Source: a bacterium (GTDB lineage Bacteria > UBA8248). From it: DNA of 64,000 nt. The DNA lies in contig CBDBEV010000001.1 of assembly GCA_965204535.1 (NCBI GenBank), positions 1,344,001 to 1,408,000 on the forward strand. The letters are read 5' to 3'. This document shows positions 574 through 59,139 of the stretch, one piece after another (the first letter of the stretch is position 1; each line of letters opens with the position of its first letter). Position numbers and translations under genes: made by a program. Under the pieces are notes generated by a model that searched no databases, was not told the origin of the DNA, and was given only the letters and a program-made list of their open reading frames with translations.

Positions 574-996
574 TCAGGTATTTTCTTCTCTGGCCGCTTC
601 GTCCATGGCCGATAAGATGTCCGTCTGGGAGAAGTCATCCCCCTTGAACAGGAGCGGCGCATCCAGATACTTGGCCAGGGCGTAGGAAAAGCAGTCGCCA
701 TAGTTCAGGGCGGCGCTATGGCCGGTACCTTTACCAAAACGCCTGTAAGCGTCAAAAGCAATATCGGCGATTCGAGGCGACACTTCCATGACTGTCGTGC
801 CGCTCTTTTGGAAAAAAGCGTCCAATGCCAAGGTGGCGCTGTCATTGAATCGGGCAAATAAAATGATGCGGGTTTCGAGCAGGTTTGCGGCGCTGATGCA
901 AGTGACCGCCGCCTTTTCAATCAGTTCATTGAAGGCGCGTCTTTCGGGCTCATTGCCCATGATGGCGATGAGCGCCGATGTGTCGACGACAATCAC
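574..996 (-). CDS. vapC: VapC PIN-domain toxin
   Basis: IVVDTSALIAI start and GKGTGHSAALNYGDCFSYALAK...LLFKGDDF; overlaps the upstream antitoxin by 4 nt. Confidence 0.93.
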   Translation of the reverse strand: MIVVDTSALIAIMGNEPERRAFNELIEKAAVTCISAANLLETRIILFARFNDSATLALDAFFQKSGTTVMEVSPRIADIAFDAYRRFGKGTGHSAALNYGDCFSYALAKYLDAPLLFKGDDFSQTDILSAMDEAAREENT

Positions 997-1247
997 GCGG
1001 GCAAACCGCTTTCGTCATACCCGATGATCTCATCGTTGCTTCGCCCGTCACGCCTTGGCAGACTGGCGCAATACAGGGCGATGCGGTCCAGTTCATCGGC
1101 AAGCGGTGTCCCGCCTTGGCTCTTCTCCACCTGCGCCAGCTTCTCCTGTATGGCGCGCTTGACGGCCTTGGCGATGGATTCTCCGGTCAGGCTCGCGAGC
1201 CTCTTCGCCAGCGCATGGGTGTCGTCATCTTTGATGTTCAGTGGCAT
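993..1247 (-). CDS. vapB: VapB antitoxin (Rv0623-like)
   Basis: 84 aa, LNIKDDDTHALAKRLASLTGES and C-terminal IIGYDESGLP; coupled to vapC. Confidence 0.9.
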   Translation of the reverse strand: MPLNIKDDDTHALAKRLASLTGESIAKAVKRAIQEKLAQVEKSQGGTPLADELDRIALYCASLPRRDGRSNDEIIGYDESGLPA

Positions 1248-1358
1248 GGCTTATTCCTCCATAAAGTAATTATAGGAGGAATGGAGGAAAACGTCAATTC
1301 TGATTCACAATTTATGTTGAGAGCCAAGTCCTCTCATTGAGGGGAAGCTCTCGAAACC

Positions 1359-2327
1359 TTACTTCCCCCTGAAGGCTTTGATGATCGCCGCCCCCTCGGC
1401 GCCTGCGGCCTTGGTCCATTCGGCGGACATGGTTTCGCCGATTTTGGCCAGATCGGCGGCGAGTTGCTCACCCGGCTTCTCCACGCTCATGCCGCCCGCG
1501 GCGAGTTGTTCGAGATAAAAGCCGGTCAACTCGCGCGCCCGCGCCGTTCCCGCCGCTTCGGCCAGCAGCGCCGAGGAGCGCAGGCAGTTTCGGGCGTGTG
1601 CGTCGAGCGCATCGAAGACGCGCTTGCCCGCGAACACGTAGTTGCGCGGCAGCCAGGCGCGCAAATCGTAGAAATGGCTCATGCGCTTCCAGAGCTTGTG
1701 GTAATAACCGGTCGCGCTCGAAGTGATGAAGGCCTCCACCTTCCCGCTTGCGAGCGCCCGGTCGAGTTCGGCGAGTTCGATGTGCACCGAGGGCATTCCG
1801 GCGAGAGCAGCGAAACGCGCCGTCGCGGCGTTGTAGGCGCGGAACTTGATCCCGCGCATGTCGGCGACGCCGCCGATGGCGCGCTTGAAATACATTCCTT
1901 GCGGCGGCCAGGGCACGGAGTAGAGCAGCACGAGGTTCTGCGCGGCGAGAATCTTCGTCAACCGGCCCTTTGCCGCACGCCAGAGCTTCTCGGATGCCTC
2001 GAAGGACGTGGCCAGCAGCGGCACGGAGTCGAAGCCGAAGACGGCGTTTTCGTTCTGGTGCGCGCTCAGCAGCCGCTCGCCGATGGGCGCTTTGCCGTCC
2101 TGTACGGCGCGCTTGATCCCGCCGCCCTTGATGAGGGAACCGCCGGGATGCACGGCGATATCGAGCTTCCCGCCGGTGCATACGCCCACCGCCTCGGCGA
2201 AGAGTCTGGCGTTTTGCGTGTGGTAGTTGGCGTCTCCATACGCTGTCGGCATGTTCCATTTTTCCGCCGCATGGGCCGCGCTCGCCCAGAGGAGCAGGCC
2301 CGCGGCCAGTCCCGTCAACCATTTCAT
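1359..2327 (-). CDS. TRAP transporter substrate-binding protein (DctP family)
   Basis: Signal peptide ending AAHA, WNMPTAYGDANYHT, HPGGSL, KFRAYN; no DctQ/DctM adjacent. Confidence 0.9.
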   Translation of the reverse strand: MKWLTGLAAGLLLWASAAHAAEKWNMPTAYGDANYHTQNARLFAEAVGVCTGGKLDIAVHPGGSLIKGGGIKRAVQDGKAPIGERLLSAHQNENAVFGFDSVPLLATSFEASEKLWRAAKGRLTKILAAQNLVLLYSVPWPPQGMYFKRAIGGVADMRGIKFRAYNAATARFAALAGMPSVHIELAELDRALASGKVEAFITSSATGYYHKLWKRMSHFYDLRAWLPRNYVFAGKRVFDALDAHARNCLRSSALLAEAAGTARARELTGFYLEQLAAGGMSVEKPGEQLAADLAKIGETMSAEWTKAAGAEGAAIIKAFRGK

Positions 2328-2512
2328 GCTCGATTCTCCCGTTGTCCAAACGCCGTGATGGTCGTCGATTGAAGCAGACGATGTGCAGAAATGCTTCTCG
2401 TTGTTTTATACTGATGAGCCGCCGGAAGACTGTCAATCGGCGTGGCGGGCGACTCGTCGGCACGTCGGTGGTCTAACGGATATATATTTGTTGACCTGCT
2501 GTTCGATCCTTT

Positions 2513-3394
2513 TCAATTTCTCAAGCCGAGGGCGCGCAACCAGGTATCGACCTGCCCAAAGGCGTCTTGCTGCCATTGATCGGGTGTCCGTTCTTGTAGA
2601 ATTCGGGTCTCTTCAACGAAGCGACGCACGGATGTCGGGCCGAAACTTTCGACGGTCTCGAACTTCGCATTGATATGTTCGTAACCGGCGACGGCGTCTT
2701 GGTACTCGATCAGTGGACGGCAGGCTTCGGCCAATGCGCCGTGGCCACCCGGAAAATTGCGAACGCAATAGTAGACATCGTAGGCATCTTTTTGTTTGTA
2801 GCGTCCCTCGAGCGCGAAACCCTTCATCGCGAGTAACGCGGGGATTGACGCGACGGCGATGCGGACGCGATTGTGGCCACCTCCGGGCATCAAACCCTCG
2901 ATCTGGATCATTTCGTAAAATCTCAGGGCGAGTTCAGCACCGTCGGCGCGGATGACGGCGAATTTGTCGATGATCGCTGGCCGGTTTTTCACGATTTTGG
3001 CATTCCGCGGCATCAGAAAATCAACGAAGATGGGAATCGGTGGTCCGTCATCTGTTGCTGATACTTGCCGCACAAGCTGAAATTTCTGCTGATTATCGCC
3101 TTGGGCGTAGCCGTGCCGGAGCAGAGCTTCGACGAGGTGAGCGTATTCACCATCGCCTAGGGCCTCGGCGTCGAGGCCGAGGTCGACATCAAACGTGCCC
3201 GCATGACGCATTGCTTCATTGTCGAGAAGAAGCCAAGGAACAGCGCCTCCGACGACGGTGAATCTGCCTTTGAAACTGCCGAGGATTTGTCCGATTTCAA
3301 TGAGAACGGATTTTACCGCTTGGGTTGTTTCGTTCGCGTAGTCGGACGCCGATTGCGGTTCGTTTTTATCGGGTCCCGCGTCGCTCAGCGCCAT
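2513..3394 (-). CDS. AbiEii-like nucleotidyltransferase (type IV TA toxin)
   Basis: VVGG...HAGTFDVDL polymerase-beta NTase motif and KQKDAYD; ATG at 3394 overlaps the end of the upstream antitoxin. Confidence 0.8.
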   Translation of the reverse strand: MALSDAGPDKNEPQSASDYANETTQAVKSVLIEIGQILGSFKGRFTVVGGAVPWLLLDNEAMRHAGTFDVDLGLDAEALGDGEYAHLVEALLRHGYAQGDNQQKFQLVRQVSATDDGPPIPIFVDFLMPRNAKIVKNRPAIIDKFAVIRADGAELALRFYEMIQIEGLMPGGGHNRVRIAVASIPALLAMKGFALEGRYKQKDAYDVYYCVRNFPGGHGALAEACRPLIEYQDAVAGYEHINAKFETVESFGPTSVRRFVEETRILQERTPDQWQQDAFGQVDTWLRALGLRN

Positions 3395-4467
3395 GTCAGA
3401 GTCTCTCGCCTTAGATGATCGGCTGATTCCGTCCCCCGCTCTCCTGATATTGTGAGGTCGAGGTAGGTCTGTACCGGACTCGTGCATATCACGCCGGATG
3501 AGGGTTCGATCGTGTCTTCCAGGATGTTCCTGTCTTTCAAAATGAGGACTTCGACGTTCTCGCCCTTCTCAACGCTCGATGTCCTCAACGCATCTGCTAT
3601 TCGCGCCATGCCTTTTTCGTCGGCGTAGAAGTATTCGGTGCCTGTCCTGAGATAAGGCGCAAGCCGACGCGCCGCCGAAAATGACGCGAAAACCGCAGAC
3701 TGTTCAGACGATTGCAATGAAAAAACATTTTTAGCGGCATTATCGAATGCCGGACCGTGGAGGCTGGTGTAGAATTTTATTATGTCACCGGCCGGGCGAC
3801 GATATACATCGCGCCAGGAATCCATCAGTGCGTCAGGGTCGGCAAGAGCCACGCCATTTTCCCGTTTTTGCGCCCATTCTCGGTTCAGCAATACTTTACG
3901 AATCCTGCTTACATGACCAATACTTGCATTGGCGGCATCGGCGAGTTCCGTGATGCGCCACGCACGCTTTGGGTTGCGCAGCATAACGCGCAGAACGTGT
4001 GCCGCCTTCGGACGGAACAACGATCTCAAATCTCGCCGTTCCGGGGGAGGTCGGTCCGCGACGCTTGTATCGATTAAGATGCCGGGTGCCTGGAAGAGCG
4101 CATTGCCGTAGAGATCGAGATAGCCGACTCCATGCTCGACACAGATCGCGCGTGATTTTTCCGATAGAAAGGGCGCGATGAGGATTGGTTTCGCGGCGGA
4201 ATTTATGCGATTCACGTAATCACGGAGTTGCAGCGCGGCGAAGCGTACGTGGCGGGGTTGCCCGTCGCTCTTTACTTCGCAAACGAGCTTGTATGGACGG
4301 CCGAATATGCTGACCGATACAAGAAAATCCATTCCTCGGTCGGGAGCTATCCAGGCTTCAGACTCGACCTCCCCGATTTCAATTTCGGGACTGCGGTCGA
4401 ACAGTCTCTGCAAGGCTTCGATAGCGCGAGTTTGCAATTCTTTTTCCGAATAATGTGATTTCATCAT
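3385..4467 (-). CDS. AbiEi-like antitoxin/transcriptional regulator (type IV TA)
   Basis: N-terminal D...EVK endonuclease-like segment, central HTH (WRITELADAANASIGHVSRIRKVL), C-terminal SPVQTYLDL...GERG; paired with the NTase. Confidence 0.8.
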   Translation of the reverse strand: MMKSHYSEKELQTRAIEALQRLFDRSPEIEIGEVESEAWIAPDRGMDFLVSVSIFGRPYKLVCEVKSDGQPRHVRFAALQLRDYVNRINSAAKPILIAPFLSEKSRAICVEHGVGYLDLYGNALFQAPGILIDTSVADRPPPERRDLRSLFRPKAAHVLRVMLRNPKRAWRITELADAANASIGHVSRIRKVLLNREWAQKRENGVALADPDALMDSWRDVYRRPAGDIIKFYTSLHGPAFDNAAKNVFSLQSSEQSAVFASFSAARRLAPYLRTGTEYFYADEKGMARIADALRTSSVEKGENVEVLILKDRNILEDTIEPSSGVICTSPVQTYLDLTISGERGTESADHLRRETLTWR

Positions 4468-49675: not shown

Positions 49676-50389
49676 ATGTATGAAATCATCGATCTGAGCC
49701 AGGAGATCTACACCGGCGCGCCCAGGTTTCCCGGGCACCCGGCGACGGAAATCGAATACGTCGCCCGGCACGAAGACGCAGCCAATGCGCCGATCAAGCC
49801 GAAGGACATCACATACGCCGCCATGATGCTTCACATGTGCGATCACGGCCCGACGCATACCGATTCGGTCAGCCACATCGATGAGCGTGAAACGGCGCCC
49901 AATATCGATCAGGCGCCGCTCGAATGGTTCATCACACGGGCGATTGCGCTCGATTTCACGGGCAAGGTGGGGCCGATGGAAGAAATTTCCCTGCAATTGT
50001 TACAGGACGAGCTTTCGGCGGCGAACCTCGCACCCCCCAAAGACGGCACGTTCCTCTTCACGGGGGGGCATTTCAAGCGCACCTATCCGACGGATGATTA
50101 CCTCACAACGTACCCGGGTCTGGGTTACGACGCCGCGAATTTTCTGTATCGCGAATGCGGCGTGGTGAACATCGGCCAGGATGCGCCGAGCATCGATGCC
50201 GGCGTGAACACCACGGAGATGACGTTCCCCTGCCATGTGCTTTGCCGGGAACTTCAGCGCCACAACACGGAAAATCTCGCGAATGTGGAAGCGGTGGGGG
50301 GGAAGGAATTTCTCTATGTGGGGCTTCCGCTCAAGATTCGCGCGGGCACCGGCTCTCCCATACGGGCCGTCGCCGTCATGAACCTTTAA
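49676..50389 (+). CDS. Cyclase family metal-dependent hydrolase (kynurenine formamidase-like)
   Basis: IIDLSQ, DHGPTHTD metal motif, GQDAPSID, ENLANV, PLKIRAGTGSPIRAVA; RBS GAGGAG. Confidence 0.9.
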   Translation: MYEIIDLSQEIYTGAPRFPGHPATEIEYVARHEDAANAPIKPKDITYAAMMLHMCDHGPTHTDSVSHIDERETAPNIDQAPLEWFITRAIALDFTGKVGPMEEISLQLLQDELSAANLAPPKDGTFLFTGGHFKRTYPTDDYLTTYPGLGYDAANFLYRECGVVNIGQDAPSIDAGVNTTEMTFPCHVLCRELQRHNTENLANVEAVGGKEFLYVGLPLKIRAGTGSPIRAVAVMNL

Positions 50390-50512
50390 TAAAGCGGGGA
50401 AATCTTCGTCTTTGCCATGCGTTAGTCGGAGGCGGGCATTCCCCGAATCGCTTTGCCGCCGTCATGGTTTTTGAGCGAGAGGGTTTCTCGGTTTGTGAGG
50501 AGATTTCAAGAC

Positions 50513-50863
50513 ATGCCCAAGACAGTGGATTGGTACTACCATCGCTCCGGCTGAAAGACCTGCGCCAAAACGCAAGCGTTTCTTGCGGAAAATGGAATCG
50601 AGGTATCCGAGCAGGCCAGTTCCAGAAAAGACGTGGTGGATGAGAACAACGTCGATTCGCTTCTGGACGGCGTGACGGACGTCTATTCGACCAGGAGCAG
50701 GAAGGTCATTCACCTGGATATCAAAAAAGCGAACCCTGCGCGCGAAGACGTGCTGGCGCTTTTGATGGGCCGCTCGGGCACGCTCAGGGCGCCGGTCATC
50801 AAACATCGCAGCGCCCTCATCGTCGGCTTCGACGCGGAAACGTATTCACAGGTTTTGACGTAA
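50513..50863 (+). CDS. ArsC/Spx-like thioredoxin-fold selenoprotein (UxxC; in-frame TGA at 50552-50554)
   Basis: RBS GAGGAG, then MPKTVDWYYHRSG-TGA-KTCAKTQAFL... reading in frame into the ORF-track peptide 50633-50863 with GRSGTLRAP...LIVGF; hairpin downstream of the TGA. Confidence 0.85.
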
Positions 50864-50879
50864 ATCTTCTCTGGGTGTC

Positions 50880-52334
50880 TCAGAGGGCCAACTGGCCCTC
50901 GGTGGGTTCCGCTCAGCAGAACCACGATTCGGTCAAACGGGGCGGGCGGATTCGGTCGGGCGCGAAGGCGGCCTTTGGCTGCTCTTGATCGGGGCGTTCG
51001 AGAACCTCGGCCGCCAATTCGCGAATCCTCGCAAAAGTCACGGCGGCGTCCTCTTGGCGAGTGGCAGCGTCCTCCACGAGAGTGAGCGCCTCCTGGTGCA
51101 GCTTGTCCATTCGCGCGTCGGGATGCGCCCAGCGGTAGATGAAATTCTCGGCGTCGAGTTCGGTGATGTATCTCTTCATGTGGGGGGAGTCGAGTAAATG
51201 GGAACCCGGCGGCACCAGTAGCCGGATGGCCATCTGAATCGGGTCGACCTCGTCGATCAAGGCGTTTTCTTCAATGAAATCAAGCAAGTCGAAATAATCC
51301 TGCGCGCTTGTCCACGGCGTGAATGCGACCAGAGACGGCCTGATGGAAACGCGCGCCTCCCGGGCGGCTTTCACGACGCGGAAGACGTCCTCCCTGTTGT
51401 GCCCTTTTACCAGATGACCAAGGACGAGGTCGCTCAGAGACTCCACCGCGGTAATGATAAACGCGCATCCGTTATCTCTAAACTCCGGCAGAAGCTCCTC
51501 GTGCTTGATGAGGTGCTCGACCTTGGCCGTGAAGTCGAAGGTGAGCGAGGGAAACCGCTCGTGCATGGCGCGGGCGACCCGGAGCGCATGAGCGGGGCCG
51601 TTCAGGAAATCCGGGTCCGCAAAGGTGATGTGGCGCGCGCCTTGCGCCGCCAGGTCTTCGATGTCTTCCAGAACTTTGTCCTGCGGCACGACGAAGAAAC
51701 GGCCCTCATACACCGGCGGAATGGGGCAATGGAGGCACAAGTGCTTGCAGCCTCGGCTCGCTTCGACGGCGCCCGCAGGATAATGCTGCCCCTCCTTCAC
51801 GAGATGGGCGTATGCCTGAAGCGCGGGCAATCCTTCCCGGTCAGGTTTGAGCAGGGGGATTTTTTCGAGATACGGGCCGGATGTTCGCTCTCTCGTGGCC
51901 GCGCCGGCTACTTCAATGTTCCCCGAGGCTTGGGACAGTTCTTGAACGAGCCTCACGAGCGGAAGCTCGAACTCACCGCCGATCGCCGAATCCCCGCCGT
52001 TCTCAAGCAGATAGCCCTTGTTGAGCAGGCCGTATAGGCCATAGAAACAGATGTGGCACCCCGGGTTCGCCTCGCGTACTTTCGCCGCGACTTCCACGCC
52101 GAGCCTGAGCGCGGTGTGCATCGGTACGCTGATGCCGACGAATTTGGCATTTTCGATTTTTTGTGGGGAGAAGTCCTCCGCCGCAACGTCCATCGCCCGG
52201 GGACGAAAGCCCGCTTTGCGCAAAAAAGCCAGGGGCGAGGCGACGGCCAGGGGCTGGTGACCCAACTCGTAACACGAGACGAGGACGACGGCGCCGGGCG
52301 CTCGCCACTCCGAAGCCTTATCGGTTCGGTTCAC
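50880..52334 (-). CDS. CUAEP-tail B12-binding radical SAM selenoprotein (in-frame TGA at 50915-50913)
   Basis: N-terminal cobalamin-binding-like domain, CKHLCLHC (CxxxCxxC); C-terminus PRLTESWFC-TGA-AEPTEGQLAL-stop; hairpin 12 nt after the TGA. GTG start inferred. Confidence 0.85.
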
Positions 52335-52356
52335 GGCGAAATCTCTCGTTCGGCAC

Positions 52357-52388
52357 AAAAAAAGCCCCGGGCGCATGATGCCCGGGGC
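52357..52388 (-). terminator. Intrinsic terminator after iscA
   Basis: Minus strand GCCCCGGGC-ATCATGC-GCCCGGGGC followed by a T-run. Confidence 0.8.
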
Positions 52389-52406
52389 ACATAAAGCATT
52401 GTTTTA

Positions 52407-52790
52407 TCACGTAGTGAACGATTTTCCGCAGCCGCACATGCCCATGGCGTTGGGGTTGTTGATCTTGAAGCCCGAGCCCTGGAGGCTGTCGATGAAGTCG
52501 ATTTCCGTGCCCGCGATGACGGGATAACTCTGGGGGTCCACGAACACGTCGAAGCCATCGGCGGAGAACACTTTATCCTCGGGGTTGGCGGATTCCTCGA
52601 AATACAGGCCATAGTTGTAACCCGAGCAACCGCCGGCGGTGACGGCCAGCCTGAGGCCGTGGCCGCTCTTGCCTTCCGCCTCGAGAATCTCGGCGACCTT
52701 CTTGTTGGCGAGCGGCGTAACCGTAATGCCTTCAAGGGCTTGGGGTTTCTTTTGGGACTGATCGAACAGCGTGACCGTTCCATCCGACAT
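52407..52790 (-). CDS. A-type Fe-S cluster carrier (IscA/ErpA/HesB)
   Basis: GGCSGYNY, GFKINNPN, CGCGKSF. Confidence 0.95.
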   Translation of the reverse strand: MSDGTVTLFDQSQKKPQALEGITVTPLANKKVAEILEAEGKSGHGLRLAVTAGGCSGYNYGLYFEESANPEDKVFSADGFDVFVDPQSYPVIAGTEIDFIDSLQGSGFKINNPNAMGMCGCGKSFTT

Positions 52791-53015
52791 CGGTTGTTTC
52801 TCCTTGACCTTGATAAGGGCTGTTGTGATTTATCGATTTATCGTTATGACCACATACCAAATATACCTCATTTCGCCTTTTTTGCAAAGGCTTGTTCCCG
52901 ATATATCCTTGAAATACAGGCTTGTTCAAGGATGAAGGCGCTTAGTCTTTCCAGAGTGGGCAGGGGAACCCCCTGGGGCATATCGAAAAATTATACATGA
53001 CATACCTTATAAAAC

Positions 53016-53044
53016 TTGACAATAAAAGACTAAGATATTATATT
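53016..53044 (+). promoter_or_regulatory. Putative sigma70 promoter of clpB
   Basis: TTGACA-17 nt-TATATT in an AT-rich divergent intergenic region. Confidence 0.7.
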
Positions 53045-53193
53045 TTTCTTGCGTCATAAAGCCTTGGCCGCCTCCAATATAACGGAATTGACGGGGTTTC
53101 AGGCGCCGGGAAATTTATCGAAATACGGTGGAAATTTATCGATATTTATCGAAATTTTCATCAATTCCACCGGGAAATTCGGAGCACACCCTC

Positions 53194-55838: not shown

Positions 55839-56134
55839 GGGGTTGTAGAAAAACCCGCGGAAGGAGAATTCGGTTTTGTAGGGGCCGCATATGGGGTTGT
55901 TGAAAAAGTCCCGTGGAGCGATTTTGGTTGAGCGCACGCTTTTGAAGTTCACTCCCCCCTTGAGGGGGAGTCGAAGAGCTAAGGGCGTAAGCCCGCAAGC
56001 GATTCGGTGGGGGGTATAATTCGGAATGGCGATAAAACGCATTTTACCCCCCACCGATTCAGCCTTCGCATAGAACGCTCGGCTTCTGTCGGGCTTTCCC
56101 CTCGGGAAGCCCGACCCCCTCAAGGGGGGAGTGA
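55839..56134. mobile_element. Nested MITE/REP composite
   Basis: TIR-like GGGGTTGTAGAAAAA, half REP GTAGGGGCCGCATAT interrupted at 55893 by a reverse-complement copy of the 19.5 kb element. Confidence 0.75.
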
Positions 56135-56241
56135 AAAAACCAGGCACGGGAGAGTAGTTTTGCAGAGGGAGTTATGAATTGATCGGCAGGGAAGTCATCA
56201 ACTCTAATATATACTTCGCGTTTGGATAAGGAGAAAGTTTG

Positions 56242-58161
56242 ATGTCGAAGGTAATCGGAATTGATTTGGGCACCACCAACTCGGTCGTCTCCGTCATGGA
56301 GGGTGGGCAGCCTACGGTCATCGCCAACCAGGAGGGCAACCGCACGACGCCCAGCGTCGTGGCGTTCACCGACGACGGGGAGAAGCTCGTCGGCCTCGTG
56401 GCCAAGCGCCAGGCGGTGACCAACCCGACCAAGACCATCTATTCCGCAAAACGCTTCATGGGCAGGCGTTTCGCCGAGGTGCCCGAAGAGGTCACCATCG
56501 TGCCCTATGAGGTCGTGAAGTCGGACAGCGGCGACGCGCGCATCCGGATCGACGGCAAGGAGCACGCCCCGCCCGAGATATCGGCGAGCGTGCTGCAAAA
56601 GCTCAAACAGGCCGCGGAGGACTACCTGGGCGAGCAGGTGACCGAGGCGGTCGTCACGGTGCCCGCGTATTTCAACGACAGCCAGCGCCAGGCGACGAAG
56701 GACGCCGGAAAAATCGCAGGCCTCAACGTCCAGCGCATTATCAACGAACCGACGGCCGCCGCCCTCGCCTACGGACTCGACAAGAAGGCGGATCAGACCA
56801 TCGCGGTCTATGACTTCGGCGGGGGCACGTTCGACATCTCCATCCTCGAGGTGGGGGACAACGTGGTCGAGGTGAAGGCCACGAACGGCGACACGCACCT
56901 GGGCGGCGACAACATCGACCACCGGATCATCGAGTGGATGGCCGAGGAGTTCAAGAAGGATCAGGGAATCGACATCTCCGGCGACCCCATGGCGCTTCAG
57001 CGCCTGCGCGAGGAATCCGAGAAGGCGAAGATCGAGCTTTCGAGTTCGATGGAGACGACCATCAACCTGCCGTTCATCACGGCGGACGCCTCGGGCCCCA
57101 AGCACCTGAACCTGAAGCTCACGCGCGCGAAACTCGAGCAGCTGACCGGCGATCTGGTCGAGAAGACGCTGGGTCCCTGCCGGCGCGCGCTCGATGACGC
57201 CAAGGTCCAGCCCGGCGACATCGACGAGGTCGTGCTGGTGGGCGGCTCCACGCGGATGCCGCTGGTGCAGGAGACGGTGGAGAAATTCTTCGGAAAAGAG
57301 CCCCACAAGGGTGTGAATCCCGACGAGGTCGTGGCGGTCGGCGCGGGTGTTCAGGGCGGCGTGCTCGCCGGAGACGTGAAGGACGTGCTGTTGCTGGACG
57401 TCACCCCGCTCTCCTTGGGCATCGAGACGCTCGGCGGCGTGTCCACCAGGCTCATCGAGCGCAACACGACGATTCCCGTCAAGAAGAGCGAGACCTTCTC
57501 GACCGCGGCGGACAACCAGCCCTCCGTCGAGGTGCACGTCTTACAGGGCGAGCGCGAGATGGCCTCGGGCAACCGCTCGCTGGGCAAGTTCCATCTCGTC
57601 GGCATTCCCGCCGCGCCCCGGGGCGTTCCCCAGATCGAGGTGACGTTCGACATCGACGCCAACGGCATCGTGAACGTCTCCGCCAAGGATCTGGGCACCG
57701 GCAAGGAGCAGGCGATCACCATCACGAGTTCGAGCGGCCTCTCCGAGGATGAGATCAACAACATGGTGGCCGATGCGGACGAGCACGCCGAGGAGGACAA
57801 GAAACGCCGCGAGGCCGTCGAGGCGAGGAACATGGCCGACAGCATGGCGTACAGCACGGAGAAGATGCTCAAGGAGAACGAGGAGAAGGTGTCGGCCGAA
57901 GACAAGAAAGAGATAGAAGACGCCATCGCCGCGCTCCGGGCGGTTCTCGCGAAAGAGGACGCGACGGTGGAGGAGATCAAGGAAGCGCAGGAAAAACTGG
58001 AGGCGGCCTCGCACAAGCTCGCGCAGGCGATGTACGAACAGGCGAGTCAGGCCGGCGACGGCCCCGCCGAGACGCCTGAGTCCGGCGGCGGTGAGAACGG
58101 CGCGCCCGCGGGCGACGTCGTGGATGCGGAGTTCGAGGAGGTGGACAAGGACAAGTCCTGA
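56242..58161 (+). CDS. dnaK: Chaperone DnaK
   Basis: [34 protein letters not shown]. Confidence 0.99.
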
Positions 58162-58185
58162 TAGTCCTGCCCGGATGAGGACGGT

Positions 58186-59139
58186 ATGCCTAAGCGTGAT
58201 TATTACGAGGTGCTGGGAATCGACCGGAGCGCCTCGGAAGCGGAACTGAAGCGCGCCTTCAAGAAGCTGGCGCGGACGTATCACCCCGACGTGAACCCGG
58301 GGGATGCGAAGGCCGAGGAGCGCTTCAAGGAGATCAGCGAGGCCTACGCCGTCATCTCGGACCCCGAGAAGCGCAGAAAATACGACGCCATGGGACACGC
58401 CGCCTTCGGCGGGGGCAGTCCCTGGGGCGAGGGCGCCCCGCCGGGCATGGAGGACATCCTGCGCGAATTCGGCCTGGGCGATATTTTCGGCGGGATTTTC
58501 GGCGGCGCGCGCGGCGGTGCGGCGCGCGGCGGTTTCCACGCGCAGCCTCAGGCCCCCCGGAAGGGTCAGGACGTGAACTACTCGATGGAGATCGGTTTCG
58601 ACGATTCCCTGAAGGGGCTCAACACCACCATCACCGTGCCCAAGACCACGAACGAGAACGGGAAAATACAGCACACCACCGAGCGCATTCAGGTGAAGAT
58701 ACCGCCCGGCGTCTCGAACGGCTCGCGCATCCGCCTGGCGGGCAAGGGGGAAACCTCGCTGAACGGGGGACCGCAGGGGGACCTCTTCATCGTCACAAAG
58801 GTGCGCGAACACCCCTTCTTCGAGCGCAAGGGGGATAATCTGTATCTCGAACTTCCCGTCAGCCTCGGCGAGGCGCTGCTGGGCGCGCGCGTGGAGATCA
58901 ACACCTTCGAGGGGGTGACGAAGATGACGATTCCCCCTTCGACCCAGAACGGCCAGGTTTTCAGGCTTTCGGGAAAGGGCGCTCCGAAACTCAAGGGCTC
59001 GGGCAAGGGCGATTTGTTCATCAGGGTCCAGGTCTTGTTGCCCGATCAGATGGATGAGGAGAGCAGGGAGATCGTCCGCGAACTCGAACGGCGCAACCCC
59101 ACGTCGCCGCGTGCGAACATGACGGGCGTGAGCATGTAG
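58186..59139 (+). CDS. Type II J-domain chaperone without zinc finger (CbpA-like)
   Basis: HPD J-domain, G/F region, DnaJ C-terminal domains; no CxxCxGxG. Confidence 0.9.
   Translation: MPKRDYYEVLGIDRSASEAELKRAFKKLARTYHPDVNPGDAKAEERFKEISEAYAVISDPEKRRKYDAMGHAAFGGGSPWGEGAPPGMEDILREFGLGDIFGGIFGGARGGAARGGFHAQPQAPRKGQDVNYSMEIGFDDSLKGLNTTITVPKTTNENGKIQHTTERIQVKIPPGVSNGSRIRLAGKGETSLNGGPQGDLFIVTKVREHPFFERKGDNLYLELPVSLGEALLGARVEINTFEGVTKMTIPPSTQNGQVFRLSGKGAPKLKGSGKGDLFIRVQVLLPDQMDEESREIVRELERRNPTSPRANMTGVSM

Follow-up and report, generated by a model that had tools for sequence, protein, structure and literature searches.

A UGA-containing radical SAM gene of the CUAEP/CCAEP-tail family with a predicted Cys-Sec tail and SECIS hairpin in a bacterium of lineage UBA8248

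A stretch of 64,000 nucleotides (nt) from a bacterium of GTDB lineage UBA8248 was analysed (assembly GCA_965204535.1, contig CBDBEV010000001.1, positions 1,344,001 to 1,408,000; hereafter the window). On its minus strand lies a gene for a radical S-adenosylmethionine (SAM) protein whose frame runs through an in-frame UGA, predicted to encode selenocysteine (Sec). The frame continues for ten codons and ends at a second stop, next to a hairpin predicted to be a selenocysteine insertion sequence (SECIS). In window coordinates, the features of this gene are:

50880..52334, minus strand: CUAEP-tail radical SAM selenoprotein gene, from GTG 52334-52332 (probable start) to TGA 50882-50880; 484 amino acids (aa), with Sec as residue 474
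50913..50915, minus strand: in-frame UGA, predicted Sec codon of a Cys-Sec pair; TGA in 37 of 40 aligned sequences, TGT or TGC in the other 3
50883..50912, minus strand: translated tail of ten codons, AEPTEGQLAL, judged by motif conservation and third-position variation
50883..50900, minus strand: predicted bacterial SECIS with a 7-bp stem GAGGGCC/GGCCCUC and loop AGUU, 12 nt 3' of the UGA and inside the E-G-Q-L-A-L codons
50880..50882, minus strand: true stop TGA of the radical SAM gene, abutting the hairpin

In the list of open reading frames (ORFs) made with translation table 11, the gene appears as a 487-aa minus-strand ORF (52376..50913) that terminates as P-R-L-T-E-S-W-F-C followed by TGA. 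The frame at this point is TGG TTC TGC TGA GCG GAA CCC ACC GAG GGC CAG TTG GCC CTC TGA. Past the first TGA it encodes AEPTEGQLAL before the second one is reached, and the tail overall reads ESWFCUAEPTEGQLAL. When numbering begins at ATG 52376, the same Sec residue becomes U488. Ordinary gene calling thus cuts the protein at the Sec codon and loses the family-defining residues, probably an active tail.

The read-through protein matches the NCBIfam family NF040546, 'CUAEP/CCAEP-tail radical SAM (seleno)protein', with 668.3 bits (residues 30-497 on model positions 1-467/468). The curated cut-off of this family is 500 bits and the matched model span includes the tail, which bears out the assignment to the CUAEP/CCAEP-tail family made earlier in a first-pass annotation of the sequence. 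A six-frame search of the whole genome returned the NF040546 match with 662 bits and one TGA, and Pfam Radical_SAM scored 51.6 bits on the read-through protein. The CxxxCxxC motif is CKHLCLHC, and its cysteines C180, C184 and C187 are invariant in an alignment of 37 sequences (A2). An N-terminal B12-binding-like domain (PF02310) reached 22.3 bits, under its gathering score of 32.1. Judged by its sequence, the gene is a member of the named, uncharacterised family NF040546, and with respect to other members (full-length match, CxxxCxxC, C-[U/C]-A-E-P tail and Sec/Cys alternation) nothing essential differs. The family was named by NCBI and is mentioned as uncharacterised by Haft & Gwadz (bioRxiv 10.1101/2022.07.06.499078). 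Full-text literature searches turned up no paper on the function of NF040546 and found CUAEP/CCAEP in that preprint only.

Solved B12-type radical SAM enzymes match weakly by sequence, with E = 3.6e-8 for OxsB and E = 8.2e-11 for 9ccb_A; these two are the nearest solved structures and are remote. An AlphaFold2 model built from the 37-sequence alignment is confident overall, with a mean predicted local distance difference test (pLDDT) score of 91.7 and a predicted template modelling (pTM) score of 0.90, while residues from the Sec position onward have a pLDDT below 50. The model therefore suggests a flexible Cys-Sec tail. Outside CxxxCxxC and the tail, C80 of A2 is the sole further invariant cysteine. 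An auxiliary iron-sulfur (Fe-S) site formed by the N-domain cysteines C5, C77 and C80 (A2) was considered and dropped, as one homolog has another residue at C5 and one at C77.

Homologs were gathered by scanning one genome per prokaryotic species, where 104 pattern matches led to 40 related loci. They are labelled Nitrospinota and 'Tectomicrobia' (close), or Rokubacteria, Acidobacteriota, Planctomycetota, Nitrospirota and Ignavibacteriales (distant). One locus (L052) ends at a contig edge before the C-terminus, leaving 39 of the 40 with a visible tail. Counts over 40 sequences refer to these 39 loci plus the window, and the 37 Sec-form sequences are 36 loci plus the window. TGA occupies the aligned column in 36 of the 39 visible tails and Cys codons in three (L055 TGT, L057 TGC, L059 TGT). 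An alignment of homolog C-termini had been proposed with the expectation of CCAEP or CUAEP, and 36 U and 3 C is what it returns. As the case speaking against read-through, the first-pass annotation had named a lack of AEP conservation past the TGA; the in-frame motif [A/T]-E-P-[T/N]-x-x-Q continues in all 39 visible homolog tails, and in 40/40 with the window included. Little or no variation is seen at the columns R..RPPR..E.WFC[U/C].EP...Q of the 37-sequence alignment, and each Sec form has a single in-frame TGA and is otherwise stop-free across ~468 residues. For the four codons that follow the UGA, 40 sequences give minor-allele counts of 2 (first position), 1 (second) and 29 (third). This pattern of codon variation beyond the UGA is that of translated sequence. 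Because the variation falls almost wholly on third positions, the tail is considered to be translated.

The perfect 7-bp stem GAGGGCC-AGTT-GGCCCTC seen in the first pass 12 nt past the UGA is confirmed at 50900-50883. The 37 Sec-form sequences between them show 14 distinct versions of the hairpin. In 36 of the 37 sequences a run of 5 or more unbroken pairs is formed starting next to the loop; L058 has a mismatch. With each version counted once, the share of paired cells is 91.8%; moving the 3' arm by 1-3 nt lowers it to 26.5-60.2%, and none of 2000 column shuffles was as high as the real value. At four of the seven pairs both bases differ between versions (G-C/C-G, A-U/G-C, G-C/A-U and C-G/U-A). 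The loop starts with AGUU in every Sec-form version, with G and U conserved. The hairpin is missing in all three Cys forms, where the minimum free energies are -7.2, -6.1 and -0.3 kcal/mol and none matches the covariance model. The proposal to look for covariation in the hairpin is thereby answered with 14 compensating versions and no hairpin in the Cys forms. The hairpin is more than chance, because 36 of the 39 relatives with a visible tail keep both TGA and hairpin and the three relatives with a Cys codon are without it.

In bacteria, a SECIS such as that of Escherichia coli fdhF is a hairpin just after the UGA, within the coding sequence. The hairpin studied here is like a bacterial SECIS in its 12-nt spacer, in an apical loop that begins 19 nt after the UGA, and in the conserved loop G and U. 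It is unlike the E. coli fdhF type in its short stem of 6-7 bp, the lack of a bulged U, the 3' arm abutting the true stop and its place at the end of the gene. A Rfam scan of 50400-51000 found no SECIS family, only two chance-level matches, to a small nucleolar RNA and to a CRISPR repeat. Contigs of other organisms (runs X23 and X4; sponge metagenome or metatranscriptome) match 35-45 nt at 50886-50930 and diverge on both sides. As these contigs show, conservation of the tail/SECIS piece at the nucleotide level is strong.

Some points weigh against reading the hairpin as a SECIS of this gene. By energy the window hairpin is modest, since a 42-nt fold has -15.6 kcal/mol and z = -1.86, equalled by 8 of 200 shuffles. 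Most of the 37 Sec-form sequences are close kin and hence not independent. The count from the covariance-model alignment is weaker, with 82.5% paired and a covariation score that 8 of 500 shuffles attain. In that alignment the 3' arm is wrongly placed for the eight sequences with a 5-nt loop, so that pairing is undercounted. The pairs were recounted by script, and this corrected count took the best-pairing loop length (4 or 5 nt), which favours structure. Finally, the contigs of RNA run X23 carry the tail/SECIS piece of other organisms and not this gene.

The genome to which the window belongs encodes the Sec machinery, with matches of 389 bits for SelB, 573 for SelA, 331 for SelD and 75.9 for tRNA-Sec, all above the cut-offs. 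SelA was present in the three Sec-form genomes tested (G051, G053, G054) and in neither of the two Cys-form genomes tested (G052, G055), both of them metagenome-assembled genomes of unknown completeness. The SelD match of the own genome (331.5 bits; G000:C2:846402-847364, locus L011) includes one in-frame TGA as well, and this SelD is, from its sequence, probably itself a selenoprotein.

Convergent with the radical SAM gene is a second predicted selenoprotein gene:

50513..50863, plus strand: ArsC/Spx-fold selenoprotein, 116 aa, with U14-K-T-C17; NF041106 119.7 bits

Its match to NF041106, 'ArsC family (seleno)protein', compares with a cut-off of 85 bits. The protein reads MPKTVDWYYHRSG-U-KTC, with the motif G-U-K-T-C. 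Sec is encoded by TGA 50552-50554, and 16 nt past this UGA comes a hairpin, CGCAAG-CGUUU-CUUGCG (50571-50587). All 24 of the 24 sequences compared retain both, although by energy the window copy has a z of only -0.66. In table-11 ORF lists only the 76-aa C-terminal part of the gene (50633-50863) is seen, and its identification as a second selenoprotein goes beyond the first-pass annotation. Its TAA stop (50861-50863) lies 19 nt before the SECIS hairpin of the radical SAM gene on the plus strand, and the two stop codons of the convergent genes are 16 nt apart.

On the evidence of the sequences compared, the UGA of the radical SAM gene almost certainly encodes Sec and the hairpin is almost certainly a bacterial SECIS, because the tail is conserved, Sec and Cys interchange, the hairpin covaries and is found only with UGA, and the Sec machinery is complete. 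With the family match added, the same observations support the reading of the stop after ESWFC as C-U-AEPTEGQLAL that had been put forward in the first pass. The alternative, that the TGA is a genuine stop, that the protein ends at ESWFC and that the hairpin is a terminator common to two convergent genes, with the tail untranslated, agrees with the standard gene call, which ends the 487-aa ORF at this TGA, and with the position of the hairpin within the 3' region of both genes. It has to contend with an in-frame tail kept across several phyla with third-position variation only, with a Cys codon at the Sec column in three homologs that read on into CAEPT, and with an NF040546 model that spans the tail. 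The hairpin, moreover, is flanked by GGTGGGTTCC on the plus strand and TGAGACACCC on the minus strand, with no U-tract following on either, and in a terminator scan of 50300-53100 the stretch 50883-50900 was not among the sites listed for either strand. It is also retained where the convergent gene is missing, and lost where the codon is Cys. A genuine stop is therefore regarded as highly improbable, and the earlier suggestion that the hairpin might act on the convergent transcript likewise finds no support in these observations. A different genetic code, with TGA read as sense, was also considered and rejected, since TGA serves as this gene's own final stop too, ORFs called with table 11 are unbroken throughout, and the genome encodes tRNA-Sec, SelA and SelB.

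The beginning of the gene is also misjudged by ordinary gene calling, which opens the ORF 14 codons too early. The ATG at 52376, which opens the 487-aa ORF, sits within the loop of the following element:

52364..52388, minus strand: terminator-like hairpin with a stem of 9 G-C pairs and T7 behind it, in the gap between the A-type carrier and radical SAM genes; hairpin and T-run kept in close relatives

Of the closest relatives, taking the 22 whose upstream region can be read, just one other shares this ATG, and many have in-frame stops upstream, at the region of ATG 52376. The column of GTG 52334 holds GTG, ATG or TTG in 21 of the 22 and is preceded by a conserved GAGAG. Because ATG 52376 lies in a terminator-like loop and a start codon is conserved at the 52334 column, sequence comparison indicates that the true start is probably GTG 52334.

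Directly upstream of the radical SAM gene and on the same strand, an Fe-S carrier gene is found:

52407..52790, minus strand: A-type Fe-S carrier (ErpA/IscA/SufA-like), 127 aa, with Cys55...Cys119-Gly-Cys121; TIGR00049 120.4 bits, cut-off 58.8

Such an A-type carrier gene has the same place in 27 of the 40 related loci, and in 9 of the 40 (four other lineages) the gene immediately downstream encodes an Nfu-type carrier. One or the other is adjacent in 35 of the 40, and three of the remaining five loci end at contig edges. In locus L059 the radical SAM gene lies inside a complete suf operon, in the order SufBD, SufS, SufU-like, SufT-like, SufA-like, radical SAM and Nfu. The A-type carrier gene of a relative is also among the contigs of RNA run X23. 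Beyond the A-type carrier gene of the window, clpB, a presumed dnaK and dnaJ follow on the opposite strand.

A gene of the ATP-grasp L-amino-acid-ligase type is present within the locus in 8 of the 40 loci, all from other lineages. Its ortholog in the own genome has 51% identity to the Acidobacteriota neighbour (E = 1.3e-122) and lies 1.2 Mb from the window, in locus L065 (G000:C2:2590526-2594749), where the positions within the locus are:

888-1436, plus strand: NfuA-like gene
1492-2745, minus strand: ATP-grasp gene, convergent with the NfuA-like gene
2735-3514, minus strand: short-chain dehydrogenase gene

A phylogenetic profile was made over 51 genomes of the source phylum. The NF040546 radical SAM gene occurs in 49 of them and is a single-copy core gene of the phylum; one in-frame TGA is present in 48 of the 49, the 49th being cut by a contig end. 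The ATP-grasp ortholog is found in 46 of the 51 genomes. It is missing in G008 and G009 (99% and 92% complete), the two without the radical SAM gene, and also in three assemblies that are incomplete or fragmented. It adjoins the radical SAM gene in five sister-family genomes. From these gene distributions, the ATP-grasp ligase is likely a functional partner of the radical SAM enzyme, with the Fe-S carriers as consistent neighbours. Compared with NF040546 at large, what is particular to the lineage is the distance of 1.2 Mb to the ATP-grasp and NfuA-like genes, the convergent ArsC-like selenoprotein and the near-universality in the phylum.

In two sister-family loci (L068 and L069) the ATP-grasp gene stands directly 3' of the radical SAM gene and is followed by small ORFs without a Pfam match and by a gene of the TENA/THI-4/PQQC family. 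In three Acidobacteriota loci (L051, L052 and L064) SelD is 2-3 kb away, and the order is SelD, ATP-grasp, radical SAM, Nfu, DnaJ, DnaK. The clade of the window has dnaK/dnaJ near the radical SAM gene too.

The ArsC-like gene adjoins the radical SAM gene in 24 of the 40 related loci, all of the close clade, and none was found at the 15 loci outside it. In the phylum, the ArsC-like selenoprotein (NF041106) occurs in 35 of the 51 genomes, often on another contig than the radical SAM gene. G008 has it although the radical SAM gene is missing there, and at least 14 genomes with the radical SAM gene lack it. A role as a dedicated partner was therefore rejected, its phylogenetic profile departing from that of the radical SAM gene. 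On these counts it looks like a lineage-specific neighbour and is probably not an obligate partner.

For the function of the enzyme, the closest characterised relative is ArsL (NF040542), the second-best family with 316.7 bits over residues 31-438. According to two bioRxiv preprints (10.1101/2024.02.01.577332; 10.64898/2026.04.29.721666), ArsL is the enzyme that forms the carbon-arsenic (C-As) bond in arsinothricin biosynthesis. As described there, it splits SAM to methylthioadenosine (MTA) and a 3-amino-3-carboxypropyl radical, which is added to As(III). In the same sources, three cysteines of a C-terminal RCCLKC motif bind As(III), and ArsL without this motif loses the C-As product and keeps SAM cleavage. 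The two proteins are alike in a canonical CxxxCxxC core and in a short C-terminal tail with a vicinal pair, CC in ArsL and CU here. Because the core is the same as that of ArsL and the tail has a vicinal chalcogen pair, a substrate-holding swinging arm is favoured.

The proposed sequence of events would be as follows. Sec insertion at 50915-50913, directed by the hairpin at 50900-50883, would add ten further codons and give a 484-aa enzyme with a C-terminal Cys-Sec. The mobile tail would then probably swing into the [4Fe-4S]/SAM site bearing a soft atom or a substrate, to which a SAM-derived radical would be added while it is held by the tail. Sec would bind more tightly, or more reactively, than Cys. 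The product would be handed to the co-occurring ATP-grasp amino-acid ligase, and the flanking A-type and Nfu carriers would supply or repair the Fe-S cluster. Taken overall, and reasoning by analogy, the best explanation appears to be a Sec-tailed NF040546 enzyme with an ArsL-like substrate-holding tail and the ligase downstream, which is considered reasonably probable.

Several observations count against this explanation. The match to ArsL does not reach the ArsL cut-off of 450 bits (316.7), and the likeness is one of homology only. The tail is WFC-U-AEPT here and RCCLKC in ArsL, that is, two chalcogen ligands versus three cysteines. AlphaFold2 leaves the tail unplaced, so its reaching the active site is unsupported by the model. 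No ars families (arsM, arsQ) are found among the neighbours in the window or among the 91 neighbour ORFs of 17 distant loci. As to the Fe-S carriers, these are housekeeping proteins whose adjacency may mean only cluster supply. The setting also differs from that of ArsL, since the gene belongs to the core set in one copy, has chaperone and Fe-S genes as neighbours and is not part of a resistance or antibiotic operon. Arsenic is unlikely as the substrate, because there are no ars genes nearby and the gene is a single-copy core gene of the phylum. The first-pass suggestion that the Cys-Sec tail serves metal(loid) capture holds up less well than its reading of the UGA. The likeness to the As(III)-binding tail of ArsL is an analogy only, and the missing arsenic genes and the near-universal presence of the gene speak against it.

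Other roles for the Cys-Sec pair were compared with the substrate-holding arm. Mammalian thioredoxin reductase (TrxR) has a C-terminal Gly-Cys-Sec-Gly (GCUG) tail that acts as a mobile redox arm. By comparison, the pair might be a redox-active selenenylsulfide or a hydrogen-atom donor, with a tail that quenches or resolves a radical or shuttles electrons and is re-reduced by a thioredoxin-fold partner. The vicinal pair on a tail modelled as disordered would suit such a role, as would the natural exchange of Cys for Sec, which is typical of redox selenoproteins, and a UxxC thioredoxin-fold selenoprotein does lie convergently 16 nt away, an arrangement kept in 24 of the 40 loci. That ArsC-like gene, however, is not obligate, given its 35 of 51 phylum genomes and its absence from the 15 loci outside the close clade, and in ArsL, according to the two preprints cited above, the tail is a substrate-binding site. 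A redox tail is therefore thought unlikely. Selenoproteins with a CU motif (SAO-locus proteins, HgcA variants and MerT variants) have been proposed to contact a heavy-metal atom through the pair, according to Haft & Gwadz (bioRxiv 10.1101/2022.07.06.499078). These proteins and TrxR share the vicinal Cys-Sec with the protein studied here; their folds are unrelated and none is a radical SAM protein.

The neighbourhood can also be read in terms of sulfur, selenium or Fe-S chemistry. The tail would then be loaded with a persulfide or with a selenosulfide, or act as ligand to a cluster delivered by a carrier, and the enzyme would insert that chalcogen into a product or take part in cluster building or repair. 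The neighbouring Fe-S carriers would in this case share in the mechanism and not just provide clusters. The upstream A-type carrier (27 of 40 loci), the downstream Nfu (9 of 40), the suf operon of L059 and the SelD gene 2-3 kb off in three Acidobacteriota loci all point in this direction. Carriers, however, serve all Fe-S enzymes, so that adjacency is weak evidence, and in the window the terminator-like hairpin stands between the two genes. The link to SelD is confined to three related loci, and only C80 is invariant besides the core motif and the tail, which disfavours a conserved auxiliary cluster site. This role is judged improbable. Returning to the substrate-holding tail, a more specific version has the NF040546 enzyme catalyse a radical SAM reaction not described before: an ArsL-type aminocarboxypropyl radical would be added to an atom, chalcogen or metal, bound by the tail, and with the ligase and dedicated Fe-S carriers an amino-acid-derived small molecule or cofactor would be built. 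It is put forward as tentative and somewhat doubtful. If true, the product of the NF040546 pathway would belong to the core metabolism of a whole phylum and several others, and would not be an antibiotic or a means of resistance.

As regards novelty, the reading of a Sec tail with a SECIS is correct and not new, the family and its Sec tail being already catalogued in NCBIfam. New here are the probable GTG start, the convergent selenoprotein, the hairpin without terminator features, the near-universality, and the co-occurrence with the ATP-grasp gene together with the Fe-S carrier neighbours. NF040546 is a candidate, open to test, for novel chemistry of carbon-heteroatom bonds as well as for a core pathway that depends on selenium, because of its kinship to ArsL with its C-As bond, its presence, always with Sec, in 49 of 51 genomes, the tracking of the ligase and the Fe-S carrier adjacency in distant lineages.

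Elsewhere in the window, two long minus-strand ORFs at 56059-58812 match Pfam PF10712 (NAD-GH) and are antisense to a long plus-strand ORF at 56239-58161. The latter is a candidate dnaK, from its place before dnaJ (58186-59139). PF10712 is reported for ORFs antisense to dnaK, and the two minus-strand ORFs are probably not real genes.

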